A stretch of 64,000 nt of DNA from Paraspadella gotoi (taxonomy: Eukaryota; Animalia; Chaetognatha): positions 17,044,087 through 17,108,086 of the forward strand of contig CM119266.1 of assembly GCA_051294375.1 (NCBI GenBank). The letters are read 5' to 3'. This document shows positions 4,651 to 59,800 of this stretch, in pieces. A program made the position numbers and the translations under genes. Positions within the stretch are counted from its first letter, which is position 1; each line of letters begins with the position of its first letter. The notes under the pieces were generated by a model, which ran no database searches, was not told where the DNA came from, and saw only the letters and a list, made by a program, of their open reading frames with translations.

Positions 4651-7384
4651 ATGGGACTTGTTGTTCAAAATATTTTAAGCAAAAAAGTGGATGGGTTTAC
4701 GAATGATTTACACGACAAAAGTCCTGGTCTCTAAATCATAACTCGCTGTCCAAGGATAATTTTAAATGTTTTTACCACTTAGAAGAGAAATGCGTCGTCG
4801 TGACAAAGAACGACTAATAAAAAAATTAACAAATATAATATTCTCATTTTACCTATATAAAATTGATTTACCATTTGAATTCGAAGGTTTATATAAATAT
4901 ATCCTTTCTTTAGAATCTTAGATTATCTTTAATATACTAAAAGGAGAATCTTGTAATTTTCATACTTTTTAAAAATATAGTCAAAATGTGAGGATTTAGA
5001 GGCTGTTAGTTTTGGTTATCTTTTATGGATCACAGTCTGGAACCGCCATCGATTATTCATACAGGTTGGTTTTCTTGTTTCATTAAGTTTTGACAAATTA
5101 AACACTTATTAATATTGTTTTCAGAACTCTTCTGACGGCAAGACAAAGAAAATGGCACTGCCTTATGTTTGATGCGAATGCTCTTTACGATTACGTCAGT
5201 AACTCGTGTATCTCTAAAGATTAAATATGTACATTTCTTTACCTTTCTTCATACAGAACGAAATTAAAAAAATGAAAAATGTTCCAGTCCATGTGGTGCT
5301 TTTCATAGTGTCGACATATGGTGACGGTGGTCCACCTTACAATGCTGAACGGCTTAATAAGGTTTGTCGGACTTCTCGAGTATGTACATAATATGTGAAT
5401 AAAATTTAATAATTAAATCTAAAACTTATGTAAAACGTTTTAAAATTTTTATATTCAATTTAAAATTTAGTCTGATACAGTAAAACAAATAATTTTGCAA
5501 TTTTTATCACTTTTAATTTGTGATGGTACAATTAGCAGACGGAAAAACATTCATCTCTCACAAAATCTACAATTTTTGAGAATGGCATATTACCTGGCAC
5601 TAGTAATATTTTTTTAAAAAAATATTCAAATATATATAATATATATATAAATAAACATAATATATAATATAAAAATAAAAAAATAAATTTTTTTAATAAT
5701 TTTTTTTTAAATGTACATTTTTTTTTATCACATATTTCGTATTATTAGATCGGGATTATTAAATTCTTCTCTGCACTAGTATCGAAATGCAAGGAGCTGA
5801 CTGTTACAAAATCGGTACAATAGGGTTAAGGGAGAGACTCAGCGAGGAATGGATGGTCTGGGTTAAGGTTAGGGTTGAGGTACTAGAAGCTCGGCGAGGG
5901 ATGGAAGGCCCGAGTAGAGGCTTGCTGGAGATGTCGCGAGCTGGGTGAACTTGTTAGGGTTAGGTTATGGTCCGCGTGAGGCCTCTAGTGAGCCTCTGCA
6001 CCAACCCTAACCCGCGCCTTCCGTACCTCCCTTTCAACCTTAAGCCTAATATTGGCCTTCTGTCTCTATCCGAGCCTCTTCTCTACTCTAACCCAAACCA
6101 TAACCCAGGCTTTCCTCGTCAGGTTGCGTTTTCAGTCCGCGCGGGTGCTGGTGACTTGACGTTGTTGCCAACCAACGAGAATTGCACTTGCAACTTTTGA
6201 GCCAATCGCTGCCGATGTTGCTGTACGGATGAACTACAACTTAGGTTTATAAGCGTAAAATATTTTTAAATACTGATGTTTAAAATTAATTTTATAAGAA
6301 AACCTGACCGAGTGAGAACTTAGTAATAGGAACCAGTTTTCTTTCGTGGGGGAAGTCAAGCGGTTATTTGCTTATTTGCTAATTATACAGCAATGCTTAT
6401 TAGCTAAATTATACAGTAACGGTACTGTCCATTAACAAGTACAACTTGGTGGATAAAATTTACTTTACTAAAATTGGTACAATCAATATAAAATTATTTG
6501 TGATGCACGGGGTGTGAGGCATCTCTCGACAGCTAGCGCTCAGGGCTTTGGACCTGCAGTGACGTGATTAAGACGACAACATCACACTGACCGTAAGGGA
6601 ATTGAACACGGAACTCATGGTTGGTGAAAGAATACTTATCTGTCCAAACGAGCTGAGTTGCACAAAGCTTTACAGGAGGCGAATTTAGGATTCGCTACTA
6701 TCTATTCATTCATTGAATAAGCCATCTATCAGGCCTCCATCACTTTTACAAGATAACGACATAGCTTATGGCAAATTTTGATATCATCTTGCTTTCAACT
6801 TCAAAAAACAATGTACATCTTGACCATTTGAAACCCGCTGCTATTAAAAATTCATCATATGAAAACGTTTTTACCAAAAAGTTTTTAATATTTTGAAAGA
6901 TATATAAAGACAAGATAACATGATAATTGATTTTGTTTTGATTTCGTAAGGATTCGAGCTTTCAATCAGAAATAAAGAGAAAATTTACATCTGTAATTGA
7001 TGGATCTCACTAATTTGTGCTAATATGGGCATCATCCAAAAGCCCTGTAAAAATGAATGAAGGAATATCGATTATATTTTCTTAAAAGTTATATAAATTG
7101 CCAAAGACTTATTTTAAAAGTCTTCTAGGATTTTTCTTGTCAGTCATTTGTTTCCCTTCACTTCCCATCGTCTTTGGAATAACACTTTCTGATTCAAAAA
7201 ATCTTTTATTAAGGCAAATAAACCGTTTTGGCCCAAGCATGGTTATAGTTTTTAGTTGTAGTTTTTGAAAAAATAAATTAAAATATATAACAAACAAACT
7301 TCTTCAGCACAATTTCTGGAATACTATACCACCTACTGTGATTTGTATTTGTATTTGCAATAAAAGTATTTTAACTGTAATTAT

Positions 7385-7416
<32 letters not shown>

Positions 7417-10400: not shown

Positions 10401-13400
10401 CCCCTGGCGAAAGATTTAAAATTATATCAAGGAGAGCCTAGCCCAGGCTCATGCTTCGCAAGGCAGAAGGGTCCTTATAATATCACCAACCCATATTTGG
10501 CGGACGTAATTTGCATCCAAGAACTTCATTCCCCAACATCTAGCAGATCTTGCCTTAGGATCGGTAAGACGATGGAAACTAAACAGGAAATTTGAGGCTG
10601 TAATGTATTACGAGTAATACAATATAACCAATACAGGATTTAACATCAGTGGGTCGCGAATGCATTGGATCGCCGGTGATCATATTGGCATTTACCCGGA
10701 GAACCATTACAGCGATGTTCTCAAATTGTCCAAACTTCTTAAGTAAAAGCAAAAGAATTCGAGAATAAAGTTATTTAATAATTTCTTGGGATATAATTAT
10801 GCATCGAACTCGAGGCTAATTTTTATCAGAATATTGAATTATGATAAAGTATGAAAAACAAATATTTGTCCGTCCGCCTGTCCGCCCATCTGTCTGTCCA
10901 CCTCTTAGCTTTGAAGCCCAATTTTTCATGAGTGGATCGTGCGTGATAGATGGAATCGTCCATGTGGAAATGAGTTTAAATGAAACAAGTTTGAGCAAAC
11001 AATTTCGGATTTGCCGACGATAATTAAGCGGTAATCAGCTAATCAAATGAGAAATAACGATAATTCTTTTATTGTGTGAGCCTAACTAATTATAACAAAT
11101 CGTATCATACAAACATTTAATGAATTAATTAATTAATTAAATAATGCAAGTTATACAAATGATACTAGTTGAAAAAATGATGCAGGTTGAAAAAATGATG
11201 CAAGTTGAAAAAATGATGCAATTTGAAAAAATGATTTAAGTTGAAAATTAATTAATTAATTAAAAAAATTATTAGTAAGCATAATTAATAAAAATTAAAG
11301 TCAACTTTACTTTGATTTTTTACATGCAAAATCTTTTCCACTCCTGGATTCCATCGAAACTTTATAGGTGATCACGTGACTGCACAAGTATGATACAAAT
11401 GCATATATCAAAGATGACCTTAAAGCAGTATTTCCTGAATTTTGAGTATTAAAAAAAAATAGTATTGACCGATGGACAGACTGACATACCGACTGACCAA
11501 CAGACACTTCAGTATTTTATTGAGCTAACTAACAATGGCTATTGTTTTATCCAAGGTTGCAACTTCAAGCACCAATCAACTTTGTTAATAAAGACCCTAA
11601 CGAGTTGCTCTTCCAACACCGATTCCCGAGTCCGTGCACTCTCGAGACCGCACTAATATTTTATGTTGATATCAATCGCCCTCCTTCCATGGATCTCCTC
11701 AGAGAACTTTCTTTCTATGCCGAAGGTAGGTACCAGAGAAACGTTTAGCTTACAAGTAATACTATTACTTTCATATTTTACCGAGTACATCTTTAAAACC
11801 TATCTTTAAAACCTATATTTGTATGACTATAAAAGGTTAATATTCCATATTTTTTTAAAAGTTGTATATAAGTTAAAAAAAATTTCGGGGATAAAGATAA
11901 ACCCAATTAGCCAATTTAGTCTTTAAGTTAAAGAGTTGATTGGTCATTTTTGTCTTTCCCCCCCACCTCTCTCTTTCTCTCTTTATATGGACTATTCATT
12001 CAATAGAAATTATTCTGTCACTCCCTACATCCTTTGTAACTTCAAATCAAAATTTGTCTCAAGATATCGTTCGTTATTGTATAGACTATACAATACAATA
12101 CCATAGTTTGTACAGTATAGAAATTTAACAGTATAGAGATGGATGTTTACTGAAAGGAAAAGGAAGACGTTCAACTTCTTCACTTTGATGTTATTTTTCA
12201 ATAATAAAAATAAAATGGGCGATTTTTTAATTAATTAATTTATACCTTCATAATACCCCAATATTAATGTAATTTATTATATTTTTTTACCAGGAAATTA
12301 TAAAAGGATTCAAAGTTATGGATTCCTTTCGTTCGTTTTAGAAAAAAAAAAATTAACTAGCGGAATTATAAGTTTGTAAGAAGCGGACAAATTCGGCGAA
12401 AATCTTAATAAGCGAGAATGTTGAAAAAAGGAAGAATTTTGGTTTTTTTTGATCGATTTCGTCTAAACCCATTGGCCAATTTAGACGTAACTTAAGATTT
12501 ACATTATTTCAGTCATTCTCTATCCAAAAATATAAAAATATTATGAAAAAATGCTTGGGATCGAGTATCAGAATTCTGTTCTAGTTGATATAAAATTAAA
12601 TTAACGACCTAATTCTTGTTAATGGGGAGGCTTAGAATTTATTTTACTTTGATGATGTGTTTCATTGAATCCAACTTTTTATTAACTCTACAGATTCTGA
12701 AGAGGCTTCTCAACTAGAAAAACTCAGTCAGAGCGACAACGATCTTTATCGCTCATGTATACTTGTGGGTCATCATACCATTGTCAGCGTTTTAGAAGCT
12801 TTCCCATCTTGTCATCCGCCTATTGAACTTCTGTTGGAAATGGTTCCTCGGTAATATTGCTGAAGAGAATTTTATTATCTTTATTTAGAGAAAAACAAAG
12901 TTTTATTTGTTACAAACAACGATTTTTATTATAAATAGCGACTCTATTAATTTTCGAGCCTTCATCAGAGCTTTGCCATTTGTCAAATTTTATATTGCTT
13001 CTGAATTGCTCAAATTATAAAATTCCCAACAGGATGCAGCCACGATTTTATTCAATATCGAGTTCCCCGAAAGTCAACAAATCGAACATCTACATAACGG
13101 TTGTGAAAGTTGAGCACCCTGTGCAAGGTACCTTAATTTGCCCTCCCATTTAACTCGGTATTGATTTTAATAATTCATATTTACAACAGTTACTATTCAT
13201 ATGAGAGACAACATGCCGAACACGCGTCTCTTTAAAGGTTTGTAAAACTATTGACAATTTTTAGCTGCATCTGCTTATTCCAGCTCTACAAGTCATGTTG
13301 TTTGTCTGTCGGTCGCCCCGCTCAAGTTGGTCAGGCAGTTACTTAAATCACCACAGAATATTGAATTATGAGAAATGCAAAAAAATCTATATCCATCCTT

Positions 13401-14154: not shown

Positions 14155-15746
14155 TACAAAAAATAAAGTAATAAAAGAAAGAAATGAAGAGAAAACACAA
14201 ATGTAAGAAAAATATGAAGAAAGAACAATAACAAAGTATGAAAAAAAGAACAACTCCTCTTAATTAAAATGACGACAACAATGAAAATCAAAATATTTAA
14301 ACATAAAAAAAAATCTTAAAAGTATAGTGATCTCGTCATTTTTTACTATCAAAGAAAATTACCAAAATCTAATTTGCATATTGCAGTAAATCATAATTAA
14401 ATGGAAATTCAAACAAAAAATATTTTAAACGAAATGAAACAAAGAAAATGGACACACATTTCAACTTCCTCCACTGCCTCACTAATGAAACTCGATAACT
14501 AGATAGTTAAAGAGTCGAAAAAATGCTGCAAGTTAAAAAAATTATGTAAGTTAAAAAAAATTATGCAAGTATAAAAAATTACTAATACTTAAGGGAGTGG
14601 TCTTTTCATACAATTGAAACATTCTTTTTCTTTTTTTTTTTTTGTGTCTGAATTAATAAACAATCTAATAATTATAAATATAATAAAATTTTGAAATATT
14701 TCCACTTCATTGATAGAAAATCAGGTACTCTGGGAGTGAATAAACGAGACTGTGAGAGAGTCTTGATTGAAAGCTTGCATGGACCTGCTATGTCATTATC
14801 TTTGTAAGAGTGATGGAGGCTTTAAACCACCAAAGCCTGTCCAAAGTCAGGGGCAAGATAGCTTATTTATTAAATGAATGGATAATTTTTATATTGGTTG
14901 TACCAATTTCATAAAAAAATTATGCAAGTTGAAAAAATTATGCAAGTTGAAAAAATTATGCAAGTTAAGAAAATTATGCAAGTTAAAAAAATTATGCAAA
15001 TTGAAAAAATTATGCTAGTTGAAAAAATTATGCAAATTAAAAAAATTATGCAAATTGAAAAAAGTATACAAGTTGAAAAAATTATGCAAGTTAAAAAATA
15101 ATGCAAGTTGCAAAAAATTATGCAAATTGAAAAAAATATGCGAGTTGAAAATTAAGCAAGTTGAAAAAATTAAGCAAGTTAAAAAAATTATGCAAGTTGA
15201 AAAAATTATGCAAGTTAAGAAAATTATGCAAGTTAAAAAAATTATGCAAATGAAAAATTATGCTAGTTGAAAAATTATGCAAATTAAAAAAATTATGCAA
15301 TTGAAAAAAGTATACAAGTTGAAAAAATTATGCAAGTTAAAAAATAAGCAAGTTGCAAAAAATTATGCAAATTGAAAAAAATATGCGAGTTGAAAAATTA
15401 AACAAGTTGAAAAAATTAAGCAAGTTAAAAAATTATGCAAGTTAAAAAATTATGCAAGTTGTGAAAAATTATGCAAGTTTAAAAAAGTATGCAAGTTGGC
15501 AAGATCAAAAGTGTGATGCCAACGACAACGACGACGACGACGTCACAAATCAGAATCAGAAGCAATAGCGACGGAGAAAAGAGAGAGAGAGAGAGAATAT
15601 ATAATTAAAAGAGAGATAGAGAAGCTGAACTCGTCCGGGAGCCTCGGAGGTAGCGCGAGCACCTCCCAATCCAAAGGACTCGGGTTCGCGCCCTGCTGAT
15701 GCAAAAAAAAAACTGAATAACAATTTTTTTGTAAAAAAAAAAGGAA

Positions 15747-15781
<35 letters not shown>

Positions 15782-16931
15782 AGGGAGAGAGAGGGAGAAA
15801 GAGAGAGAGAGAGAGAGTTTTCCCACCAACGAGACGCATTATTAGGTCACTCTCGTTTATATCGGTTATCCGTTGCCTCGCAACGGTGTCGTGAAATTGG
15901 GTCATGTTGATTTTTTTTTATACACGTAACGCATTATTAGTCATGTTCCTCGACATTGTTTACTTGTTGCCCCGCAACGACCACGAAATCTAGGTTAAGT
16001 AAGTTATTGTATTTTGGGATTTTGTATTGAGATAAAATAATAAATAGCGATAATAAAAGTTTTTAGAAGGAAAAAAAATAATCAGAGTTTTCAAAAAACG
16101 AACGATCACACAAAAGATATACAGAGAGAGAGACAACACACGAGAGAGACAGAAGAGAATAAGAGAGAGACACACACAGAGAGACAGAAAGAGAGACAGA
16201 GAGGAGAGAGAGACAGAGAGAGACCACAAAAATAGTTAGAACGTGATAGAAATAAAATTGAGAATCCCTATTAACAAAAATATATAGTTGACAATACTCA
16301 GTTAACGACTATGATATTTTTGATTTCCAAATATTTTTTTTACTTATCAAAAAAAAATTTATTTCTTCATTTTAATAAATTTTAATCTTGAATAAAAATT
16401 TTGATTGTTCTTTTTTTAGGAAGAAACCAGACCGAGGTCAATTTTATATTTGCAATATTTAATTAATTTATAAATAGTTAACAAAACTAAAATAATTATT
16501 AGTTTTAAAAAAAGATAAAAATGATTTAATATATACACTAAAAATATTTATACATTAATAATAGTACAAATTATCAGAATAACAAAAAAGTAATGTTTAA
16601 TTTGACTATATCTCTCTTCTCGACTCCTATTTTAGATATAATTTGCTAAATGGGCCGACCGTCCAAAGTTACAGTAATAAATAAAAACAAAAAAAATTCT
16701 TTTTTTAAAAAATGATAAATACATACATACAGGTATCGCCTACCTGTCACATTAGCTGATGCACATGTGACACTGCATGTCATTATACGTTATTCTGAAA
16801 TGTAAACACAAAAGTCTCGGATGTTTGGGTTTTGTATTAAAAAAAATGGCGATAATAAAAGTTTTTAAAAGGAAAAAAATAACCAGAATTTTTCAAAAAA
16901 CGAACGATCACGCAAGAGATCGTACAGAGAG

Positions 16932-16962
<31 letters not shown>

Positions 16963-17150
16963 AAGAAGCTGAAGTGAAGCTGAAAAAGCGCGGAACTAGT
17001 TTACTCGTCGCCGAGTGACGGTGGTGAAAAAAAGTGACTAAAATTTTTTTTATGTAAAAAAAAAGAGATAGAGAGAGAGAGAGAGAAAGAGACAGATAAG
17101 AGAGAAGATAGAGAGAGAGAGAGAGATGAGAAGAGAGAGAGGAGAGCGAG

Positions 17151-17183
<33 letters not shown>

Positions 17184-17273
17184 GATAGAGAGAGAGAGGC
17201 CGGAACTCGGTGGTGAAAAAAAGTGACTAAAATTAAAAAAAAAAAAAAGAGATAGAGAGAGTGAGAGAGAGAG

Positions 17274-17315
<42 letters not shown>

Positions 17316-18590
17316 CCCGCCAACGATACGCAATATTAGGTCACTCTCGTTTATATCGGTTATCCGTTGCCTAGCAACGGCGACGTGACTCGGTCAAGTT
17401 GATTTTTTTTATACACGTAACGTTTCCGTTGCCATCAAAACGCGTTATTAGGTCATGTTCCTCGACATAGTTGGTTGAAATGCAGGTCAAGTAAGATATT
17501 CTTAACATTTTCTCCAAAAAATCCATAAGAATCTTGGATGTAAATTTGGATTTTGTATTGTGAAAAAAGCGCGGAATAAATGGCAATAATAAAAGTTTTT
17601 AGAAGGAAAAAAATAATCAGAATTTTTCAAAAAACGAACGATCAGGCATGAGATCGATCAGAGAGAGAGAGAAAGAGAGACAAATATATATATATAATTT
17701 AAGAAATAAAAGAAAGGCAAAAAATGTTACAATGGTTTACAATTGGAAATTTTTCAATTTTTTCCAATCGCAGCTTGTAAAAGATTTTATTTTTATTTGT
17801 ATTAAAATTAAGATATAGCTTCTCATTAAAAAAATCCTTTGAGTTCCCATTTTTATTAGAAATTTAAAAAAAAAATTTTTGAATTTCATCTTCAATATTA
17901 TATACTGCAATATGTCAATTAGATTTAAGCATTTCTATATACTAATTTGGATATTATAATGAGTACTATAATCTCATTGCATATTGCAGTAAATCATAAT
18001 GAAGTGGAAATTCAAACAAAAAATACTTAATTCCAAATGTAATAAGAAAATATCAAAGCTATTTCAAAATGAGAAGCCATATCTAAATTTTTTAACTTAC
18101 TATGATTGCACACTTTTGTAAAACTTATCATAATTCATAATAATTTTTATTTAAAAAAAAACGGTAAGTCACAGCCAAACCTATAAAAGCGTAGTAGTTT
18201 TTATATAACAAAACAGCGTGACGGACGACGACGACGACGACTACGTCACAAAGAAGCAACCCTAAAACATTATAGAGCCTGACCCGGCTTCGCCGGTCAA
18301 GGCTCGATAAAAAAAATCTTAAAAGCATAAGGAATCGAGCCTACTTTATGATACATATTGATCCGATGATAACCAAATATTGATGCGATGATAACCAATA
18401 ATTGATGCGATGATAAAAATAACTGATGTGATGATAATCAAATGATTGATGCGATGATAGTCATTCATTGATTGTGATGATAATCATTCATTGATATGAT
18501 GATAATCATTCATTGATGCGATGATAGTCATTCATTGACGCGATGAGTCATTCATCGTAAATAAAACAAACAAATGCGTGTATGAATGAA

Positions 18591-18626
<36 letters not shown>

Positions 18627-19555
18627 GAGATGAGATGAGGTGGTCAGTTTTCACTCTCGTTTATATAAAGTATAATCAGAAGCTGGACCGCCCTGCAGAG
18701 CTGAACTCGTTTTTTCGACGTATCTGAGTAGGGACGAACCTCTTTTCCTTTCCTTTGAATGAAATTTTTAGATTGTTCTTTTTTTTAAGAAGAAACCAGA
18801 CGGGTCAAATTTCATATTTGCATATTTAACTAATTTATAAATATTTTATCCCAACTCAAATAATTATTATTTTAAAAAGAATAAAAATGATTAAATATAT
18901 ACACTAAAAAAAATTTACAATTTTAAAATTGTAAAAATTATTGAATAACAAAAAAATAATGTTTAATTTGACAATATCTCTCTTCTCAACTCCTATTTTA
19001 GATATAATTTGCCAATAGTGGGCCGACCGGTCCAAAGTTACAGTAATAAACAAAAACAAAAAAAATTTTTTTGTTAGAAAGTTATATATGTAATTAAATT
19101 AATCCGCGCAATTGCCGGACATATAGCAGCTATATGTACAGCAGCAAGCTGATGTACATGTGACATTGCCTGATTATAAGTTATTTTTCCTTTTTCTAAA
19201 AGGAATCCATGAAAATCTCGGATGTAAATTTGGATTTGTATAGAGAAAAAAAAATAAATGGCGATAATAAAAGTTTTAGAAGGAAAAAAATAATAAGAAT
19301 TTTTCAAAAAACGAACGGTCGTACATAGAGAGAGAGACAGAAGAGAGAGAGAGAGATGAAAAAAAAAAAAAACAAATATTTTTTTTGTAAAAAAAAAAAA
19401 AGAGAGAGAGAGAGAAGAGATAGAGAGAGCCGGAACTCGTTTACTCGTCGCGCAGTGACGGAGGTAAAAAAAAGGTGACTAAAAATTATTTTTGTACAAA
19501 AAAAAGAGAAGAAAGAGAGAAAGAGAGAGAGAGACAGATAGAGAGAAAGATAGAT

Positions 19556-19588
<33 letters not shown>

Positions 19589-19664
19589 CCGGAACACGTT
19601 GTTACTCGTTTACAAGTGAATAAATTTTTTTTTGTAAAAAAAAAAAGAGAGAGAGAGTGAGAGA

Positions 19665-44800: not shown

Positions 44801-47800
44801 TAATGAAAGAATTTTTAAAAAAGAGTTATATTTCTTCATATAAACTTTTCATGACGAATCTAAATCTGCAAAAAAATCTTATAAAAAACTATTTTGAAAT
44901 TTTAACATTTATTGGATTAATACTAGTATAAATATGGCCTACTGCGTGAATTTTAAAATTTATTATAACATTTTTTTATACATGAATGTTCATTAGTATA
45001 ATGTTGTTCGTTCCTCACTTTTAAAATTTTAATTAAAGTTAAATTTAGAATTTTTACTAGAACACAACGCTTGGGATGGTATGTTCCCCCTCTGAGCCAC
45101 TGGGATTAGCTGAATGATGATGTATGTGAGGCAGTGCGAATATACCGCCACAAAATAATCCAAAAATTATTATTCAAAAATTTCTTGTGGTATAAAATGT
45201 TCCTTTCAAGAACTTGCTTATAAAATGGTCTTTTTTTGCTAATTTTAAATTTTAATTTTAAAAGGAAAAAAGTACCAAAAATTCAGAGTAATTAATAAAT
45301 GAAACTTATATACAAAAAACGTCCTAAACTTCTCCAACTAATGATTCTTTATTAAATATTTGAATTATAATAAATATCTCCTTGGTTTCACTCGTGAACG
45401 GACACGTAGTATATTTTTTTGTTTTAAATAAAATATAAAAAAGTAGTTGTTTGAAAATGAAACATCCAATCATCAAAAACCTTGATATGAGAACCTATAT
45501 TTAGCTTTATATAATTATAATATTTAGTGAAGCATAGCATAAAAGGCTGGCTAGATAAAAACTGATATTGGAGAGGAGCTAACATATGTCAACATTGATA
45601 TCGCAAGTTGCGGCTTCAAAAAATTCGCTGTTCAGATGGATATGAAGGACTTCAATGAAAAGTTCCAACATGGCGGCCACGCGCGGATTCAAATGCACGT
45701 CAGGCGAGAGACAAAAATACAAGCAACTTCGAGGAAGCTGAAAACTGAAAATTAATATAATTAATATATTAAAAAATAGGCGATCCTGGAGTTGACTACG
45801 TTCTGGAGGCTTCTGGGAAAATGAGGAGGAAGAAGATATAATTTTAGTAGTGTTTATAAATAATTTTTTAAAAAACAAATTATTTTTCCGCATTGATGAA
45901 GGCTTACATTAAAGCAAAAATGTATCTTTTTTTATATTTTTAAAAAGTAGTATAGTAGTATAGTTTATAAATGCTAATAATTTTTTTTGATTCAAATATT
46001 GTTTTAAAAATTTAAATTACCATACACTTAATGATATTTAATTTTAAACTTATCCTTAACCTTAACCTTAACCCGCATTTACCCCTAACCCTAACTTACC
46101 CTTAACCCTAACTAGCTCTTACTTACCCTTAACCCGAATTTACCCTTAACCATAACTTTTCCTTAATATTAATTTACCTTTAATTTTAACTTACCTTAAC
46201 ATTACTTAACCATATCCTATTTTTAACTTTAAATTACCCTTCTTCTTAATTTACATTTAATCTTAAACTCTGTTAATTTATTAAGAAAAACCTTGCTTTT
46301 AATTTTCTTATAAGCCTCCAGAACGTATTCAACTCCAGGAATGCCAAAAAATATCCTCTGGAAAAAAAATAAAGCCGAAATTGGCAAAATAACTTAAAAA
46401 AACCAGTATAAAATATGAAAGAAACTATTTAAAAATGTGGGTTAATTTTTTACAAAAATTAAATAAAAGAGCTAAGTGAGCTGAAGACTATTATCGTAAC
46501 TTCTCGGCCCGCTTGGCAGTCATGAACTCATGGAAGGGGTCCTGAGCTTGGAACCAGGCTAGAGGGTTTACCAGGCCCTCAAAGCGGTTTACGGCTACAG
46601 TATAAGTACCAGTTTGGAATTAAACTAAATGAGCTACCGGATCACAACTGAAAGTGTCATGCTTAATTGCTTATAGGTGGGGTGAACTTATGCAATGCCC
46701 AACTACATATTAAGTTTTGTAATCTAAATTTTTAGTCGGATCTGCTTATCAGCAGATCTTGACTCTTTAATTCAATTTGTCGGTCCGTTGGTCCGCCCCC
46801 TCAATATTGTCGGGCACTCAATTATATCATGTCAGAACATCGAATTATGATAAATTATACAAAAAAAAATTATGTCCGTCCATCCGTCCCACCTTAGGAA
46901 AAAAACACCAATTACTCGTGATTGGATGGATGGATTGGAATGAAATTGATCCGACATTGTTTGCTCAAACTTGTTTCTTTATAAACTGTTATATTTTCTA
47001 TAATTTAAAGAATTAATGTTCAATTTTTTACATTTTTGTAGGACTAAGCTCTGACAAAGAAAGCCCAAGGTTTTTTTAATATATTCTTATACCGGCAAAG
47101 GTAGAATGATGGCAATATTGTTAATATTAAGTTTCAAAAAAATCCGACCATAAATATAAAAAATATTAACCAAAGTCTTCGGAAAATCCACCCCTTCTTT
47201 GGAAGATTTTCGCCATAGAAGATTTTTCCTGAATCTGACTCTCGGTTGAAAACTCTTAGAATTCCAATCGTTAGCTCCTCTTTTACTTTTACTTTAAATA
47301 AAAATTTCACCAAAATGGACTAATTCACTTTCATATGATCGTATCATATCAAAATAACCAAATAAAATGTAAAGAAAAATTTTGAGAGCCCTTCAGATAC
47401 TTTGCCAAAGGATTCCAAAATCGGACGTCATTTGTTGAACAGGAACATACCTCAGTCACGTTTATATCGTTTTCAAGGAAAAAAATCCCTTTCATTTCTA
47501 TATAAAATCAGAGATAAAAAAATTTTCTGTCCAGAAGCAGTCTATTTGTTCTGGCTTAACAAGTATTAAAAAACACTAGCTTTGCATTTTTAAATCCCAT
47601 TAATTAGCTTTACTCACCTTCCATCGATCTTCCACCATAATTTCCCGAATTTGTTCTCTTTCAGTAATTCTGGAGGAGCTCTTACATTGGTAAATTCCCC
47701 TTCCTTAAGTATAGAAAATCTTGAGGCTGAGAGAGCAATAGTGAGATAGAGTAAGAAAGAAACAAATAAAAAAATAAAACTATAAGTGTACCTTAAAGTT

Positions 47801-50800
47801 TAGACCAAGAAAAAATTTTTTTTTGATTTTATATTCATTTTGCTAAAAAATATAAGAAATGCTATGTCATTATCTTGTAAGAGTGATGGAGGCCTTAAAC
47901 CACCAAAGCCTGTCCAAAGTCAGGGGCAATATAGCTTATTTATTAAATGAATGGATAATTTTTATATTGGTTGTACCAATTTCATTGAATAATTGACAGC
48001 TTTTATCAACTTTTTGGGATTGTGAAGACGCAACGACTCGAGTAGTTTTCATCCTCGAAGATGATTCGTGAAATTAGCAATAACCAACAAATCACAAATC
48101 GCAATTTTTTTTTTAGAAATCGCAAAAAGAAGTACAAACGTTTTGAAAATTATTACATTTGAAATAATATCTCAATAAATGCTTTATGTACATTAACATT
48201 ATTTTTACGTTCTGCTTAATAAAAGATTTTGTTTGATGAAGACTAATATCCGTACTTTCTGTGCCCCATCGAAAGCAATGGAACGGGCTCTAGGCTTGGA
48301 ACCAGGTTTCAGGGCTTCACGGCCCTAAGGCAGTTTATGGCCATCCGCACACTTTCCGCAGGGTAGGTACCATTAGGGATGGGGATGAGGGTTACGGCTA
48401 AAGTAAGGTTAGGACTAGAGATTTGGGATCAGTTTAGAGTTAGGGTTACAGTCAATGATTAGGAATTAGGTTTAAGGATTGGGTTATATGTTTGGTAACA
48501 AATAGTTAAGTTTAAGTTAGGTTCATGGATTGAGTAACAGAATGGGGCGGTTTTGGAAAAGAGAGCCCAAATTGGTATCTAAAAGATATTTAAGAGCAAG
48601 ATATTTGGAAAAAATCAAGTAAAGAATAGTATGCTAGCAAAAAATAGTGTTTCTTGCGATCAGAAACAATGTTTAGTTATTAAATTTTGTTTCTAGTGAG
48701 TAAAATGCATTATTTTATATTTCACCGAGGTATTTATTTGCAGCTGGAAGATGAAACTCCTTGATCGTAGTTTTCTGTAACCATTGGGTCTTCATCTTGT
48801 CTCGCCACTCACCCAAGGAAGGGTCAACCCATGGGGTAAACATAGCGTCGTACCATCGCTCTTTTTCTGTGCATTCTGTAATAATAAATATAATAATAAT
48901 AATAATAATCTGTAATAATAAATAATTTTAACTTATCTTATAGTTTGTGTTTTTCTTTTCACTTTTTTTCACATCTACCTGGAGCAAAATTCGGTGAAAC
49001 CCACATCAAATTTACTTCACTCGGATTTAATTTTTCTAAAAAATAATATCAATTGTTAAAAACTTTTTAAACAAGAACAGGCAAGGTGAAGATATTTTAC
49101 CGCAGTGACTTTTTTTGTGTGCACATTTCCCTATAATCACATAATTACCCAAGTATGAAAAATATGCACAACAAGCAAGTTCAATCTTATTAACTAAAAT
49201 AACAAGTATTACATGAACTATGCCAAAGACTTTCTGACCGCATTTCTATGTTGCCAGGTGATTACACAAGTATGAAACATGCACAATAGAGCGTTTTCTA
49301 AAATGAAAATACACAAAAATATTTGGTAAAAAAAAAAATGCACAGATTACCCTTATAGTTATTTTGATCTATCGGTAGTCGGGCATTGCAATAAGTTCAT
49401 CTTGCTTATAAGCATGATACTTTCAGTCTTGACACAGTGTCTCACTATCTTTCAAAAGGCGTTTTAAATATTTAATATTTTGTAAGCATATTATTATAAA
49501 TATATTAAAATTTTTGTTTGGTTCCTATCAGTATAATAGTAAACTATTTTTAGTACTTAATAATTATAATAGGACTAAGCTCTGACGAACAAAGCCCAAG
49601 GTTTTTTTCATATATTCTTATACCGGCCAAGGTAGAATGATGGCAATATTGTTAATATTAAGTTTCAAAAAAATCCGACCATAAATATAGAAAATATTAA
49701 CCAAAATCTTCGGAAAATCAACCCCCTCTTTGGAAGATTTTCGCCATAGAAGATTTTTCCCGAATGTGATTCTCGGTTGAAAACTCCGATCGTTAGCTCC
49801 TCTTTTACTTTTACTTTAAATAAAAATTTCACCAAAATGGACTAATTCACTTTCCCATGATCGTATCATATCAAAATAACCAAATAAAATGTAAAAAAAA
49901 ATTTTGAAGCCCTTCAGACAGTTTGCCAAAGGATTCCAAAATTGGACATCATTTGTTGAACAGGAACATACCTTAGTCACGTTTATATCGTTTTCAAGAA
50001 AAAAAATCCCTTTCATTTCTATATAAAATCAGAGATAGAAAATTTTTCCGTCCAGAAGCAGTCTATTTGTTCTGGCTTGTTTGATATCAAGATGTTGATG
50101 ATTTGACAAGAGATCGGAATCAAGTGTTTTTACATCATATTTAACCAGAATTTTTACGAGGAGCGTTTATATTGTTTGGTAGTCAGATTTGAACGAAAAT
50201 CTCCATTGAAAAAGTCTTCCTCGATCTTTAAGAACGACGAAGACTCCTAATTATAACACTTCACATTTTAATATATTTCAAGTTAATTTTTTATTCTTGA
50301 GAGCTCCATTCAAATTCACAATGATACCACACCAGTCTACTAAGTATTTTATGAATAATGACGCATTAAATTTCTGGTCATTTGATCGTATTTTTAGGTA
50401 AGTACGTGACTGCACAAGTATTATACTTTTATACGTTAAAGGTCTAATTGTATACCTTTATACCAAATATTAAGCTTAAGCAGTTTTACCCAATTGAAAT
50501 AAAAGTGGGAACGACCGGTGGACAAACATACCAACTGACCGATCGACTAAAAAGTTATTGACTTGTTTCACGAGTACTCGTGGCGCAATAAAATCTTAAC
50601 AAGTATGGAATGGAGGGGTTTTTGAGACGAACCAAGAATTCTCCGAAGCATTTGAACATCGAAACGTCTGAGCAACTGTTTTCCACACAAAATCGAGTGC
50701 GGCGGATATCGACGAAGATTAACGCTTAACATCTCAACGTTGTCTACCGGGTCAATATCCTCCTGGAGTGTTTAAGATCATTACTAGGAGCTTTTTCATT

Positions 50801-53800
50801 CATTTCTTACTAACAGCATTTTGGTTCATATTCCTGATTTCTATAGAGATTTGCTATTTTGTCTTCTCCCACCTATTTTTCACTTGCATCGCTTTATACA
50901 AAATAGTACATTTGCTTGTTTTCAACATATTTTTCTAGAGGTACCATAAATAAGTGAAATTTATTTCTGTAACTGTTAGATCTTCCTTTGCACCTGTTTT
51001 TACACAAAATAGCAATTTCTTTTTAAATTTTTATCATTCCATATATCAATTTCTATCCTTCTAAATAATTTACAAATTTCTTAATCAACATCATTTTTTA
51101 AATGTTTTTATCTTAATTTTTTTTTTCTTACCCAATTTTTTAAAAAAAATAATGCAAGTTAAAAAAATAATACAAATTGAAAAATGATGCAAGTTTAAAA
51201 AATTATCCAAGTTAAAAAAATTATGCAAGTCGAAAAAATGATGCAAAATGTAGTATAGCAATATTAATTATATTTCTACCTTAAAAAATTAAAATTATCA
51301 TTAATTGTATTCTTATGATACGTAAGAAGCCTAGGCAGCAGAGCCTTAAAATTATTTTGTCATTTTTTTTAAACGCTTCTTTCGATTGTAACTGTATTGA
51401 ATGTCTTATAACCCATGTCCCGCTAGGGTTCAAGGTTTTCGAGCTATTTATTATTTGAGAACAGTAATATATAATAACAATAACATTTATAAAAAGCTCA
51501 AAATACTAATACTCCATAATATCAATATGTTAATAAAAATTTTGTAGCGCGCAATTAGATTATTTACAGCTTTATAATTTGCTTAAAATAAATATAAAAT
51601 TGAGCATCGTTGAATTGAAATAAATATACCTGCCACGTAAAAAGAATGTTGCTCATTTGTTTACGTTCTTCGTAAATGAGGTTGAGTTCGCTTTCCTCAG
51701 AATTTCGGAGCATATTAATATAAAAAAACAAAGCTGTTATGAGTTTATAAATAGAATTGTTTAAACATGATTGGATTTTTGTGAATCGCGTAAGTATTTT
51801 TTCCTTCCTAGCAAGATCTTTTTAGAAATCTATTCTTTGCATTCTGTTATTTTCTTATTAATCCTAAACTCCACTTAACTTCTTTTTCTTATGTGAAATC
51901 CTTTCTTTCGTTGTGTTGTAGATTATGAAAAAGTTTGAAATAGTTCAACAACGATTTTATTTTGAGACATAAACAATGGACATGGACATGTTTAATAAAC
52001 ATTGTCCATGTTGAACTATTTCAAACTTTTTCTAAACTTCTTTTTTTAAATTCTACTAATGTTCCATTGTCAAAAACGGAAAGTAAAATCCTTTGTTGAG
52101 AAAGTGATCCTATGTTTTATGCTAAAATTTGTTTTAATTACCTGTTAGAATTCCTAAGACCCGTTGCTGACCCTCATCAGTAAGTGAGAATGAAAGAGAA
52201 AACATATAACTGCCACTGCTGTCCTCAAAATTTCCACCTCCAAAGCCATACAAAATTTCCACGCACCACAATCTCGATTTTAAATAATGACCCAAACTAC
52301 CTTTAAGAAGAGATTATTCAAATTTCGGTAGAAGTTTAAATCAATTTTTTTAAATTTTGTGGTAAAGCCTAATACCACAAAGTGTGACAATATGCACGGT
52401 TTCTAGGAAAAATTTAGTATTATATTGACAGATATCACCCTTTCTCGATGAAAGAAATAACCTAAAATAGAACAAACTACAAAGTCAAAGATTTAAAATT
52501 TAACTTTTGAAAGGGTAAATTGTAAAATTAAAATAAATTATTTTTATTAAATATTGTTCATTAGTTTTACTTACGCTATTCATTTTTCTTTTTTAGAATT
52601 TTGATTCCAGATATATTTAGAATTTTCACTACGCTTTGATTTTCATACAAAAAATACAGAAACTACCTTGATTTTTTTATTCAGTCCTGCTAATGATTCA
52701 GAAATTGATTTTAATATCTCACCGTAGCCATCGTGCGTTAACAAAAAATATATAAAATCTGTTGTCTTCTCTTCCCACTGACAAAAAGGATTTTTTAATT
52801 ACGCCGCGAGTATTAACAGAGCAACTCTATAAGACACTTTGTTGTTGGTCGATCAGTATGTTTGTCTGTCCGTCAATATCCAATTTACGTTACAAATGTT
52901 TAATAAAAGGTAATGTATCAAACTTATGTAGTCACGTGATCACATGACCAAAAATTCAAGGTGGCACAATTCATGAATTATTTATTTAATTAATTAGTTA
53001 ATTATTTAGTTAGTTAATTATTTAGTTAATTCTTGATAAATTTATACGAAATTTTATATTATTGTATGTATTGTATGTGTATATTGTAAGCGACGTATAT
53101 GGTCAAGCGATTAGAAAGAAATGCGGCAAAGTTTGTATAACATTTGGTTATTTAAGTCATTGTATGTTTTTTTTTTTTCGTTGAAGTTGTGATTAAGAGG
53201 AGAGGTTTTTTTTTTAAATTAAAATTTTTTTTTTTTTATTTCAGTTAATAAATGAGCAACCAAAAAATTCTTATGTTGCATATCTTTTATACTTAGGTAG
53301 TCATGAGATTAGCGTGAAATGCATCCAGGAAAGGAAGTCACTCCGGCGCAACGCCTTGAACTTGCCGGTTCTAGTTTGTTTTTTTTTTGTAGACACAATC
53401 AATATTTTCTGAGTTAATTACATTCTGTCGCATTGAAGGAAGGCACCAGGTTACAATAAGTTGGTTAATGGTTGCAACTGGCGTTACTTTTATCGGACGA
53501 CAAAAGAGAGAATTAACATAGGGTAGCTGAAAACTATCCTTGGAGAAATCAGGCATCATCACCGTTCCATATTCTGGAATTTTGGAGAACAATTCGCACA
53601 CCTGTTATCAAAAAAAATTTAATGAAATTGTAACTTGATCTAAGAATATCTATGAATAGAGAGAGGCAGGATTTTATGCCTCTACTAGGTTAAAATAATC
53701 TGTAAAAAATTAATTCGGGGCCCAAAAAGTTTTTTTTGAGGGTAAACCTTATTTAAATTAATTTAAAGCTTGCAGGGTAAGGCGTAATTATGGTTGCCTA

Positions 53801-56800
53801 TCAAAATTCGAGTAGTCGATTGTGAATATGTAAGCGAGAATTTAAAAATAGTTTTTGTAACTTAACTACACAATGGCTTTTGGATGTAATAAGAATCATA
53901 CCCATTTTTCCAGAGTGTCAAGCGATTTACCAGCTTGAACTGCCAATGTCATATTTGAAGCACAATAATACTTATTAAAGAACTCTCTTAAGAATTTTTC
54001 CAAATCCAAACCAAAGATAGAAGGAGTTTCGCGAAGTGTTTTTCTGAAAGGAATTTAAAATTAATCGCAAAAGTACGACCAATATTAGTAGCAGGGAGGC
54101 AGACAGAACCAAAAGAAAACCGTCTTCGGAAGTAAAAGGAGTGTAAAGCGAGTGTTTGCTATAGGTTTTAGACACCACCACATAAAAAGTCTAACTTTAG
54201 TTGTCCTTGTACCTGCTATACCCTCCCCACAAGTGCATTTTTAGATAATTTTAAAACGGAAAGTTATAAATTTTTTTAAACATGCAGAGTAGAGTGGAGC
54301 ACTCAAGAACAAAAAATTTATTTGAATGATCGAACAATGATATTTAGATGTGAGATAGTATGATGATTGCAGAGTGCATTAAGGAGACAGAATTTTAAAA
54401 TAAACGCTTACTTGCTTCCATCCACAAATCGTGACATTGGGTGATTTTTTCGTATCATGCTTTTTAGCACCTAAAAATATAATTAATAAAAGAGTTGTTT
54501 CAGTCAATTAACAAAGATAATTATAGAATTACTTTGTTCATATTGTTTGGGAAACAAAACTAACAAATATAGTAAATTATTAAAATAATTGGTGTGGTTC
54601 TAGTTGGTTGGCGAGGACCCCCATTGGCGACCTCGCCAGTGATAAAAGTAGTGAATATAATGAAAGGCGTGAGGCTCGCGGCTGATGTTGAGGCACGGGG
54701 ATAAACGCATCACTCACGGGCCCCAACCCTAACCCTAACCCGGGCCTCCCGTTCAACTCCATGGCTCTCCCCCAACCCTGACCCGGGCCTGGGCCTCCCG
54801 TACATCTCCGTGCCTCAACCCTAACCATAACCACCTTCGACGTAACCTTGGGCCCCTCCCAACTCGGGCCTACAGTTTAACTCCATGCCTCTCCCCCAAC
54901 CCTAACCCGGGCCTCCAGTTCAACTCCATGCCTCTCCCACAACCCTAACCCGGGCAGGGGCCTCCCGTACATCTCCATGCCTCAACCCTAAATGTTAACG
55001 ATGTAGTAAAAAAGCTCACCTGAATCACTCTTTCATCATCATCTTGTTTCGTTTTGCAAAACTCACTGAAAAGTTAAATTATTTATTTTCATTTAGATAA
55101 TTTTATATGTTCTATTAGCCGAATCAGATCAATATAAATGCAGAAAATGTTTGACTATTTTCTATGCTTCTTGGGTTGTATCAAATAATATTTAAATATT
55201 ATTGTGATATAAATCCTTTCTTTTCGTTGTTTGGGACGATTAGAGACAGTTTGAGTTTAGTTTTGACAACGATTTTTATTTAATTCAAAACAGACATGTT
55301 TCGGCTTCATTTCAAGCCTTCATCAGCGTTGTGAAAAAATACAAAAAATATAGAAAAATGGAAAAGATGGTTAATCATATAGTGTGTTCTTAAAAATGTA
55401 TAAAATTTTATTTTATCTTGTGGCGGTATATTCACACCGCCTAACGTCCTCCTTCGTTCAGCCAAATCCATTGGCTCAGAGGGGGAACACACCATCCCAG
55501 GTGTAGTGTTCCATCCACAGTCCTAACGACTTCCCTCTGTTTTGGCAAAGCGAGACCGTCCTAGGGTAACCGCGCCAGTGACTGGAGGCGTCACTGAGGG
55601 TCGGAAGCCCCCAAAGCCAACAGTGAGATGCCCCATCCCAATGGGCATCACAGGCAACCCGGCTGTTGCTATAAGTGGTGAGCCCTACTATCGAACATGC
55701 AACCTTCTCAGGGTACGCTACAACAAATGTCTATGCCCTGCCAACTTTGGGTACGCTACGACAAATGCCTATGCCCCTGGGGTATGCTACAACAAATGCC
55801 TGTGCCCCACAACTCGCACTCTCTCTCTCTCCCACTATGGTAACAGTCTTGTCAGACACCTCACAGGCTAGAGGAACCTGAGTTATGTCTTGGCCCAGGG
55901 ATTCTGTGGTGGTATATTCACACCGCCTCATGTCCTCCATCGTTTAGCCAAATCCAATGGCTCAGAGGGGGAACACTCCATCCCAGGCGTAGTGTTCCAT
56001 CCACAATCCTAATGACTTCCCTCTGCGTTGGCAAAGCGAGACCGACCTAGGGTAATCGCGCCTGTGACTGGAGGCGTCACTGAGGGTCGGAAGCCCCAAA
56101 AGTCAACTGTGAGATGCCCCATCCCAATGGGCATCACAGGCAACCCGGCTGTTGCCACAATCTACTCATTAGCGGAAAAACGAAAATGGAGTTTTCTACA
56201 ACGATTTGTTTTATTTAACTATGAACATGTTTCGACTTGTAATTTCAAGTCTTCATAAGCATTTTTATCAATTTTCGTTTTTCCTCTAACCTTCTTACAC
56301 AACGAAACGAAAGGATAAATTCAATAGATCTACTCATTATAAATTTTGGACTCGCCATAATGAGTCAGGTTACCTTCACTTACACATACATTTCATACAT
56401 TACATTCTATATTTAGTACCATTTTGTATACGAACAGGTCATCCATAATTTAAGGTTAAAAAGTATCTGGTACTGGGCACTAATGAATCTGATGATAAAC
56501 AAAATACGTACCTGTCAACAATTTGTATTTCTTTATCAATCCTTTCCGGTTTCAGCAAAGGATCTATAAAAAACTAAAGAAATAATAATGTTCAAAATTT
56601 AAAAGTTAGTTTTAGGAGAGAATTCTGTAAGGTTATAATGGTAAATAGAAGGTTACAGATTTGATTCTCTGAATTAGTTTTATTAAAAGGATTTTTTATG
56701 ATTTATAAATGTGCAGTTTTTACAATAAAAAGTACATAAATATATTCATTATTGGTCTTACCAATTTAATAAGTAACTCTCTGACAATATTAATTATGCA

Positions 56801-59800
56801 GCTGTGACTACTGGACACAGTAACAAAAGAATTTAGATCACTTATAAGGAATACAACAAATTATAAAATTACTTGAGCGAATCTCGACATTGATTGTTTT
56901 AAACCATCAACATTAACTTTAAATTGAAAGGTAGTTTCCTCAAGATCAGTCCAAGCGTTACAAGAGCCTCCATTTCTATTGTAAAGATCTCTTGTTAGCT
57001 GGCATATTGTTCATCTTTTTAAAGACGGTTCTTCTTTTACTTTTTTTTAACCGCAATTCACGCAGTACAAGCATTTAAAAAACTGCTGTAATTGGGGCTT
57101 TTTAAGCCTGATATGGACAATTTTTATGAATGTATCACTATAGAGAACTATAGAATCCAAAACACACAACTCTCACTTAGAATAGATCAACTTTCTCATA
57201 CTTCCAAAGAGTGAACGTGCAGAAGGCAAGGGGAGACAAGTGAGCCCAATGGTAATGTATTCTAACTCTTTTGGGGAGACCCCCATGTATTAGATGAGGA
57301 ATATATATATATATAATATATACTTTGTGTATAAACTATAAATCTTATATAAAATTTTAGAATTCAAATTTAAATTTTGCTTTTTAAATAAATGAATAAA
57401 TGATGAAAGCCTAATGAGTAATGTTAATCCCCTAAAAAATCGGAAAGTCCCTGTGTATTATTATTTTATGGAAGTATATATATCGTATTAGTAGTTTTCA
57501 ACTATTGTATAAATCTATTTCTACAAAATTTTTATTTGTTTAATAGGCAAATTCTTGTATTGATATAGTACATTTTATAACTAACTTGTCCAAAAATATA
57601 TCGAATTCTCCAATTTCTGGATAACGTTTACTACCAAGAAATAGAACGTGTTCCAATAAATGTGCTAGACCTGCGAAAAATAATTATTATTATTGATTTA
57701 TTATTAATGCAATTGTAGCTCGTATTGCCCAGGTTCATCCCGCCAATCGAAGTAAAGACCAGTTTGAATAAAACGCTAAATGGGCTAAAGAAGACTTGTT
57801 GATAAGGCGCTAAGCAGGGGCGGCGAGAGGGGGTAACACCCTCGCCTCAGGCCAGGGCCCCAGGAGGGCCCCCTCATGGTTAAAAATAAGCGCTAAATCT
57901 CATCTAGTCAGAAGGTTTAACAAATTTAGACCCCTCGCTCAGACTAGAGAGGCGCAATGATTGTGATTTAAAAAAAGTTTCAGTAAAACACCAATGCCAT
58001 GATGCAAGTCCTGGAGCCATAAGTTTGAGCACTGGAGCAATTTTCAAGGCAGAAAGTCCGTAATCGAAAACTAAAATCTAAAATTATGGAGAGCAGGGGG
58101 TGGGCCGGCAAGGGGGCCAGTGGAGGGGTCCGCCATTTTCTCTCGCCGCCCCTGGCGCTAAGACTATTCTCAACTTCTTTAAACCCCTGTCGCAGCAACG
58201 AAATCCCTTGCTTGGAACCTGGCTTGAGTTTTTTAAAGCCTCCAAAACGGTTTAAGGCCATTTTCACGCAATGTCCTCTATATGTCCAGGATTTTAACCC
58301 ACCCTACGGCTGTTTCCAGTGAAGAGAGGGGAGCAATCTTCAGCAAGTCCAGGGGACTGGAATTAGAAGAATGGCATATGCTTGACAGGAAGGGCTTACC
58401 AGTGTGGATAAGGCATTAAGTGGGCTGAAGATGCTTGCTTGCTAGCTTTTTTAAGTTATTATTTTTTTATCATTTTCATTAATTTTTTTATCAAATATTG
58501 ATAAAAACGAAGAGCAGTTTTTCATACTAATAGAAAAGTACTTGACTTTTTTTTTCCAATTCGTACATTCCAGCAAAGGATAGTTTCTATGTTATAAACA
58601 TTTTCCTAAGAGGGTAAATTTCCAAAGAAGAATTTTTTACTTGGAAATTTCTACTTTGAAAGTGGATCTTACTATCAATCCTTTAGTTCCCATTAAAACA
58701 ATTGAATTTTTTTTCATGCTTCATTTTTATAATTATTAAGATACTGTAGTAATTGTATCGGGATATAATATGAATAATACTTAATAATAATCATTACGTT
58801 TTCCATTTAAAATCTATTAAAAAAAATTCAGCTTGGGGACGACTTTGTTGATAAATAATAGTTACCTTAGTAAATAAGTTGGGTTTTACATGAAATTTTT
58901 TTTAATAATAACAAATCATCGAACTGACTTTTTATCAATATTTTTTAAAATTTTTATAACAGTTACTTCATAATCAGCGTTAAAAATTGTTAAATTGTTA
59001 AAAACTTAAAATTTGGACGAAAAAAAATGAAGAAAAGTGACTCCGCGCTTGAAAGCCACCGTGAAATTTGAACATTCTTTTAGGTCAACATAAACGTCAA
59101 GTAGTTTTTTAACTAATAAAGGCAATAAAAATAATATTCCATGAAAGAATTACGAGTTTAATCAAGTCTTTTTGTATCGCTCCCGATCAAGTCCCTGTAG
59201 TCAGTTAGTTACCCAAAATACTATCAGGGTCACAAAAGGACCCAACGCCGACAGTGAGGGCCACCGCGGCCAAGTTTTCTTCCCTGATGGCCGAGGACAT
59301 TTTTTTGTCTCTTTTTCCCGGTTTCCTTCTGTTGCAGACCGGAGCGGAAGATCGCGGTTTGAAGTGTCTTATAGCTGCGGTTATTAGAAGTGGTAAATTG
59401 GTAATACGTAAAATTGTTCTCTGCCTTTCTGCTTTTCTCACCCGTTTTATTATTCAACCTTTTGTTCAGTTTTTCGGATCGCGGAATATTTTCTGGACCC
59501 TCCAAACTAGTATAGGAATGCTCATCATTGGATTCGTTCCTGCTGGTTGACTCTAACACGAAGGGTTTCGATACCTGTTGTTAAAAAACGCTTATATTAA
59601 CTTATCTAACTACAATGCAGGTAATTTTGCTAAATGACTTTAACGCTGGGCTTCACGTAGTCTTCAATCAGTATAGCGGTTAGGCCATTATGCAGCTTGA
59701 TTATTCTATAGTTTTTCTTGTCGCATGGCGACTGAATTGGCGAATCTAGCAGCGTTACTTGCTGTGTAACCTTCCAACGGGGCATTTTAGATCTATTCTG

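Follow-up and report, generated by a model that had tools for sequence, protein, structure and literature searches.

Twister-like cores and the repeat families that carry them

The 64,000-nt stretch of the chaetognath Paraspadella gotoi analyzed here (contig CM119266.1 of assembly GCA_051294375.1; referred to as the window) contains 14 cores resembling type-P5 twister ribozymes. The 14 positions had been proposed in a first-pass annotation, and a twister-like core could be identified at each of them, within ∼12 nt of the coordinate given there. Four cores belong to a long terminal repeat (LTR) element, TRIM-1, five to family F, three to family G, one is a singleton at 28470 and one lies in a probable solo LTR related to a second terminal-repeat retrotransposon in miniature (TRIM), here called TRIM-2-like. 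The 14 sites therefore represent about five repeat families rather than 14 independent cases. The annotation had described the families as unrelated; several distinct families are indeed present, except that the TRIM-2-like LTR is weakly and distantly related to TRIM-1 (global score -3 compared with a shuffle maximum of -13). Several of these high-copy families, an LTR element among them, carry a variant of the known type-P5 twister in which P1 is minimal and palindrome-linked.

The complete TRIM-1 element (55419-56159, plus strand) is 741 bp long, non-coding and has TG...CA outer termini. It is composed of LTR1 (55419-55673, 255 bp), a non-coding internal region (55674-55904, 231 bp) and LTR2 (55905-56159, 255 bp), and is flanked by a 4-bp target-site duplication (55415-55418 on the left and 56160-56163 on the right). 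The LTRs are 93% identical. A length below 1 kb, the absence of coding sequence, two TG...CA LTRs and a target-site duplication identify the element as a TRIM. A primer-binding-site (PBS)-like stretch at 55676-55690 begins with TGG, 2 nt past LTR1; the window had no tRNA gene with which it could be compared. TRIM-1 gave no Pfam match, no tRNA match and, at gathering score, no Rfam match; a tRNA- or 5S-derived promoter module was not detected. Three direct repeats of 28 nt lie in the interior at 55711-55807.

Each TRIM-1 LTR holds a sense-strand twister core. The LTR1 core (55550-55612, linker TCCTAGGG, predicted cut 55567/55568) looks intact, with one A-C in P2. The LTR2 core (56036-56098, linker ACCTAGGG, predicted cut 56053/56054) is the top-scoring copy of the window, and the majority letter at 56045 in its linker is T across contigs. 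The two remaining TRIM-1 cores are decayed and lie on the minus strand. One is in a solo LTR split by an insertion (44324-45158); here the core (44386-44448) carries a G-to-A change of the general base, a T2 mismatch and a non-palindromic linker. The other is in an old LTR with a partial internal region (35441-35738), and the linker of its core (35501-35563) retains a swapped palindrome, CAUG in place of CUAG. The probable TRIM-2-like solo LTR (6500-6705, minus strand) is nested in a family-F copy and has a partly decayed core (6541-6587) with a non-palindromic linker.

Family F consists of elements of ∼270 nt. One element (40549-40819, minus strand; core 40613-40656, without P3, linker AGGCCT) and a second copy on the same strand, at a distance of 325 nt (40873-41123; core 40938-40981), both look intact in the core, as does a 5'-truncated copy on the plus strand (47860-47985; core 47881-47924). 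A copy with an internal insertion (14582-14916, plus strand; core 14808-14851) has the linker AGGCTT, which self-pairs only via G-U. A diverged copy of 79% identity (43790-43929, minus strand; core 43806-43849) retains AGGCCT, T1 and T2. The 3' end of the family is fixed at 47985 (sharp at 47982-47986 in hundreds of contigs) and the 5' ends are variable; truncated and adjacent copies are present. This pattern is compatible with a Penelope-like non-autonomous element and also with other non-LTR retroposons. Within the core and linker of family F, no position varied in ≥15% of contig depth, and the core was not found in the metagenomes searched. Several contig joints of family F cluster at 47883-47898, near the predicted cut, and the copies at 6731-6765 and 29377-29497 lack the ribozyme partly or wholly. 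A cleavage footprint or a simple hairpin-driven deletion could account for this; the joints might also be artefacts of alignment or deletion, and no conclusion was based on them.

Family G, with elements of ∼160 nt, has no detectable similarity to family F outside the core and a lower contig depth. All three copies are on the minus strand: 48230-48390 (core 48290-48352 with P3, linker TGGCCA, GC replacing GA), 46460-46606 (core reduced to its 3' half, 46542-46595, the 5' half being lost) and the decayed copy 58150-58269, in which T1 and P4 are broken and the central GGCC is retained. In the singleton core (28471-28529, minus strand) T1, T2, P3 and P4 are perfect, UAU stands for UAA and the linker is non-palindromic; judged from these changes it is likely dead. 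A MITE-like inverted-repeat element of 108 bp (28540-28647) lies directly 5' of it. The carrier families are non-coding and likely retrotransposed.

For many contigs the match ends abruptly at 55418/9, 55673/4 or 56157, and the flanking sequences differ. Contigs fitting TRIM-1 numbered 8,365, 269, 2,890 and 531 in four runs from three studies, and 15,081 contigs of run X1 mapped to 47850-48420, mostly to family F. The run with the highest counts may derive from the source of the window itself. Contig depth is not equal to copy number; nevertheless, with distinct contigs numbering in the thousands, the repeats must also have thousands of copies. The very large ribozyme-bearing repeat load anticipated in the annotation is thus apparent within one run, which gave the 8,365 contigs on the TRIM and the 15,081 on the stretch of families F and G. 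A loose 5' end at 55460 in one contig (run X8) carries what we take to be a template-switch adaptor from cDNA synthesis, a hint that a sense transcript may begin upstream of the LTR1 ribozyme.

The surrounding window has a GC content of 28-43% per 2 kb, abundant repeats and satellites, and intron-rich genes; searches with its exons gave no homologue. A flavin-reductase-like host gene lies on the plus strand (11533-13150; Pfam FAD_binding_1 at 11.5 and 12.9 kb). An M16 peptidase gene similar to insulin-degrading enzyme/nardilysin lies on the minus strand (43318-59827), with four Pfam matches at 43.3-50.8 kb and, at 59.7 kb, a weak match to insulin-degrading enzyme. Introns of this gene contain at least five twister copies in sense orientation, two of which look intact (43833 and 48336). 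No reverse transcriptase was found among the 149 open reading frames of the window in a Pfam search, and no parent element of family F came to light. Mutually related satellite arrays with 19-bp and 18-bp units occupy 60060-62100, 11100-11300 and 14860-15430, and a unit of ∼750-800 bp with GA microsatellites is repeated about six times at 15500-20300. A weak match to the hepatitis delta virus-like ribozyme model drz-agam-2-2 (27153-27299, plus strand; E = 3, far under the cut-off) is probably due to chance.

Detection and strand order of the cores

A looser first descriptor gave 137 matches in AT-rich DNA and was uninformative. A log-odds version was derived from the twister consensus, with weights set for the window GC content of 33%, and was compared with 30 block-wise dinucleotide shuffles. 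Eight matches of ≥18 bits were obtained in the window and none in the 30 shuffles, where the top score was 17.4. Their predicted cut sites (56054, 55568, 28513, 47897, 40965, 40640, 14824 and 43833) all belong to sites of the first-pass annotation. The sites at 48336 (17.2 bits) and 6569 (15.6 bits) were borderline, and those at 44430, 46590, 35545 and 58253 scored at or under noise and were counted only via homology to family members.

An Rfam scan of the window at gathering score gave no match. At relaxed scores, the type-P5 model matched four family-F sites with 25.2-25.8 bits, compared with a cut-off of 37.6, and no other site, and the type-P1 model matched 56049-56121, so that five of the sites are matched by Rfam twister models below threshold. 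Hammerhead models had no match in the window at either score. The type-P1 reading of the TRIM motif suggested by the match at 56049 was rejected: its downstream T1' is unpaired, while the upstream T1' pairs at 3 of 3 positions. The P5 strand order outscored the P1 order at nine of the ten sites above 15 bits and was tied at 6569 (15.6 versus 15.3), and in each of the four TRIM-1 copies, as in both family-F copies tested, the flanks pair to form a P5 helix. The type-P5 order that had been claimed for these motifs is thereby borne out.

Covariation and intactness of the fold

Covariation was assessed on one representative for each of the five families by permuting partner strands. Pairs were counted by coordinate because MAFFT gave no structural register across families; the representatives were selected for fitting the fold, and the P-values therefore lean toward the fold. 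T1 pairs at 14 of 15 positions (P = 0.017) and P4 at 15 of 15 (P = 0.008). T2 pairs at all 10 positions, with a single covarying change (P = 0.2), and P2 at 11 of 15 (P = 0.067), usually with two firm pairs. When an example from outside this genome was added (metagenome locus L125, see below), T1 reached 17/18 and P4 18/18 (both P = 0.003), and P2 14/18 (P = 0.011). Of the covariation proposed earlier for T1, T2 and P2, that of T1 is thus supported, while that of T2 depends on one pair and that of P2 is weak. In addition, T1 had been described as 4 bp long. It comprises 3 bp, all Watson-Crick. In the supposed fourth pair, the conserved L4 U faces the base with which P1' begins, giving a U-U combination in 55568, in 48336 and with the TRIM majority letter. 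If T1 is read as 3 bp, the T1 at 48290, previously called imperfect, is perfect.

The L1 UAA is present in 12 of the 14 cores, the general-base G with its following A in 10 (and GC in one more) and the L4 motif U-NNN-AA in all 14. Intactness was judged by the rules of a large type-P1 twister screen (PMC11662667). Eight copies look intact, and the other six carry changes that were harmful in the screen, such as broken pseudoknots, an A in place of the general-base G or UAU instead of UAA; the earlier estimate that about half are decayed agrees with this count. An A-to-C change as at 48336 and, in vitro, P2 defects were tolerated in the type-P1 twisters of that screen. From their sequence, the sites are type-P5 twister folds predicted to cut at U^A, and their identity as twisters is held with high confidence.

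A reduced P1 with a palindromic linker

The linker between T1' and UAA, where P1 is located, is only 6 or 8 nt long and allows 1-2 bp. Its central 6-mer is self-complementary in all eight intact-looking cores. Seven have a perfect palindromic tetraloop, and the eighth pairs through G-U; across the cores, the palindromic tetraloops are CUAG, CAUG and GGCC. The palindrome outlives sequence change: CUAG alternates with CAUG in TRIM-1, and A-GGCC-U in family F corresponds to U-GGCC-A in family G. With the majority T at 56045, the TRIM linker is self-pairing at 8 of 8 positions. Predicted energies are -9 to -11 kcal/mol for linker duplexes, compared with +2.7 to +5.8 kcal/mol for the same linkers as lone hairpins. 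None of these short loops is of the GNRA or UUCG type. The chance of a palindromic tetraloop in four of six families is ∼2-5e-4, or 0.002-0.004 with families F and G merged. The first-pass annotation had passed over this reduced palindromic P1, which we consider the distinctive feature of these cores.

The Rfam type-P5 family (RF02684, clan CL00120) has the same strand order, UAA cut site and GA, and also shares L4 (U-NNN-AA-GC), T1, T2, P2, P4 and the open ends in P5. It differs in P1, which in the model is a stem with a 14-position loop and here consists of 1-2 bp with a palindromic tetraloop; these cores lack the longer P1 hairpin that RF02684 members are expected to form within one molecule. 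Furthermore, the T1 sequences here are non-canonical, the best scores stay under the cut-off and the carriers are eukaryotic repeats.

For comparison, 200 viral and metagenome loci were scanned with the linker length left free. This gave 29 perfect parses in P5 order, 26 of them with 16-30 nt linkers and 23 of these 26 with stems of 6-9 bp; since the scan patterns fixed T1 near the canonical sequence and caught long-P1 twisters only with a second TAA, the ratios are not frequencies. Two short-linker parses were rejected as mis-parses because a longer or a type-P1 reading fits. The sole true short-linker case outside this genome (1 of the 29 parses) is L125, a 1.4-kb metagenome contig with a perfect short-linker type-P5 twister at 382-425 (minus strand), whose linker is self-complementary at 8 of 8 positions. 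About 85 nt downstream of it, a C-terminal fragment of a tyrosine recombinase is encoded (31-297, minus strand; Pfam Phage_integrase, E 2e-4), so that the carrier is possibly a DIRS-like retroelement, a family label derived from this fragment. In prokaryote genomes, none of 48 pattern matches could be parsed as a P5 twister, and no true short-linker P5 case emerged from viral scans, which covered 31, 25, 28 and 5 loci.

Two other arrangements were observed in these scans. Several different canonical type-P5 parses occur within ∼3 kb of single metagenome loci (5, 3 and 2 in L099, L115 and L135, respectively), and some phage type-P1 twisters have a second upstream GA-T1' block (L016, L024, L045 and L052; L004 and L035), giving partial P1 and P5 readings.

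Proposed cleavage as dimers

Animal type I hammerheads mostly have a helix III of 1-2 bp with a small palindromic loop and are active as dimers (PMC4209133), and folding as dimers is thought to let them cut multimers and spare monomeric circles (PMC4209133; PMC6765202). As the twister linkers are built like these helix III loops, we infer a partner-swapped P1, in which two copies would exchange linkers and build a P1 of 6-8 bp. The cores would then be type-P5 twisters with a palindromic P1 of 1-2 bp, spread in high-copy repeats and cutting best as dimers. The probability of this interpretation is put at about 0.55, and a preference for cleavage as dimers is, on balance, favored to the same degree.

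In TRIM-1, the two ribozymes would meet in a transcript that runs through both LTRs. Cleavage of each at U^A would yield a unit of 486 nt, corresponding to one whole LTR plus the PBS-like site. As in plant LTR retrozymes, this unit could then be circularized by ligation and copied into DNA by a partner element of the Ty3/Gypsy type. Solo LTRs, lone intronic copies and the circle itself would have one ribozyme each and, in this proposal, would mostly escape cleavage. Family F, whose 3' end is fixed while its 5' ends vary, might use tandem copies in the manner of the hammerheads in Penelope pseudo-LTRs. The full circular-RNA cycle is put forward more tentatively than the preference for dimers. 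Similarly tentative is the broader proposal of a natural dimer-gated twister, a counterpart of the dimer-cleaving hammerheads, in several eukaryotic retroelement classes, including a first animal LTR retrozyme, built on a twister. In that retrozyme the ribozymes of the two LTRs would have to pair before a circular RNA intermediate could be released, and the thousands of solitary intronic copies would be silent.

Several points weigh against cleavage as dimers and the cycle built on it. A twister without P1 cleaves at almost wild-type rate (PMC5408937), and P1 defects left cleavage unreduced in the type-P1 screen (PMC11662667). As P1 is dispensable in known twisters, monomers may cut unaided, and a 1-bp stem with a tetraloop within one molecule is plausibly feasible on steric grounds. 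The interpretation of the palindromes arose from the window itself, and L125 is its only prospective test, a single case with a 6-8% probability by chance. Two of the five window families (28470 and 6541) have no palindrome, each being a single copy with other damage. The 486-nt unit, computed on a single aged copy, is not unusually structured (z -1.29), and 58% of it is paired as a circle, compared with >70% in retrozyme RNAs (PMC4918200). No clear polypurine tract precedes LTR2 or is present in the copy at 35.7 kb, both being old copies. Finally, the family-F pair 325 nt apart is probably intronic and in sense orientation, so that a dimer could cut host pre-mRNA; the intron is putative.

Alternative explanations

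The strongest alternative, though less likely than cleavage as dimers, is that each core is active on its own, as a monomeric type-P5 twister whose P1 is minimal, and that the palindrome is incidental or serves other RNA pairing. Retroviral kissing loops, for example, are dimerization signals for packaging. The dispensability of P1 speaks for monomers, as do T1, T2 and P4, which are complete inside one molecule, and the non-palindromic linkers of the two singleton cores. What monomeric cleavage leaves unexplained is that palindromic loops occur in three window families and in L125, with swaps that keep the symmetry; loops of the GNRA or UUCG type are missing as well.

It is considerably less probable that the folds are relics from parent retroelements, i.e. 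that non-autonomous families spread without cleavage and most copies never cut. The damaging changes in 6 of 14 copies, the weak P2 stems of the family consensuses and the lack of a DNA-end pile-up at the cut site among the loose ends listed are consistent with relics, and 8 of 9 Xenopus retrozyme dimers tested failed to cleave according to a preprint (bioRxiv 10.64898/2026.07.22.740005). However, the majority sequences of TRIM-1 (among the positions listed for it) and of family F retain the catalytic bases and both pseudoknots, the family-F copy diverged to 79% identity retains its core, and the P2 defects are of a kind tolerated in vitro (PMC11662667). Chance matches in AT-rich, repeat-rich DNA, which the missing Rfam match at gathering score and the 137 matches of the loose descriptor might suggest, are very improbable and for the top eight sites largely refuted, given the empty shuffles at ≥18 bits, the five Rfam matches below threshold and the covariation of T1 and P4 between families.

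Comparison with known ribozyme-bearing retroelements

The hammerheads of Penelope-like elements and animal non-LTR retrozymes (PMC4209133; PMC6765202; PMC7761336) resemble the dimeric twisters proposed here in the minimal, palindrome-looped helix beside the cut site, the very high copy number and the tandem or repeated placement. They belong to another ribozyme class, and dimer cleavage has been demonstrated for them, whereas it is predicted here. Naiad elements are reported without canonical hammerheads in the excerpted text of PMC8557442.

With plant LTR retrozymes (PMC4918200), TRIM-1 shares the non-coding nature, one ribozyme per LTR, a target duplication of 4 bp and a PBS-like site, together with a unit-length RNA, predicted in TRIM-1, between two cut sites. 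The plant elements carry a type III hammerhead and have a unit of ∼700 nt, whereas TRIM-1 has a twister fold, a predicted unit of 486 nt that is not highly structured, an animal host and no clear polypurine tract. In the excerpted text of the 2026 preprint (bioRxiv 10.64898/2026.07.22.740005), LTR retrozymes are still described as belonging mainly to plants and as carrying type III hammerheads, and a twister is not mentioned. The animal TRIMs Helenus and Ajax (PMC10886601) are likewise shorter than 1 kb and have two LTRs and a TGG-type PBS-like site, and Helenus, which is mobilized by Gypsy, also has a 4-bp target duplication. The LTR module of these TRIMs is a tRNA- or 5S-derived promoter, whereas that of TRIM-1 is a ribozyme fold.

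Among animal twisters, the T-variants of Perere-3 in Schistosoma mansoni (PMC8501958) are similar in their retrotransposon link and weak P1. They are of type P1 and mark the 5' end of the element, whereas the cores described here are of type P5 and internal, and no pile-up of 5' ends at the cut site was seen. Retrotransposon-linked twisters in the excerpts consulted are of type P1 or truncated, at RTE 5' ends (PMC8501958; PMC7761336). As these animal examples are of type P1, the suggestion of the annotation that type P5 is unusual in animals is plausible. A literature search found no twister in an LTR element and no natural dimeric twister within its coverage, which excluded the original twister paper, most subscription journals and supplements; type-P5 lists in that literature could include short-P1 animal examples.

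Implications

Because standard Rfam scans miss every copy in the window, short-linker palindromic twisters are likely under-counted. If cleavage as dimers is correct, two unrelated ribozyme classes would have converged on one control device, a palindromic minimal helix that requires a partner copy, and a twister gated by proximity would be a useful part for RNA engineering. The design of the LTR retrozymes, mainly known from plants and hammerheads, would be extended to a twister in an animal, and a small LTR element would have a way to release its own RNA. For P. gotoi, it would account for a genome that carries thousands of self-cutting motifs, many of them in introns.

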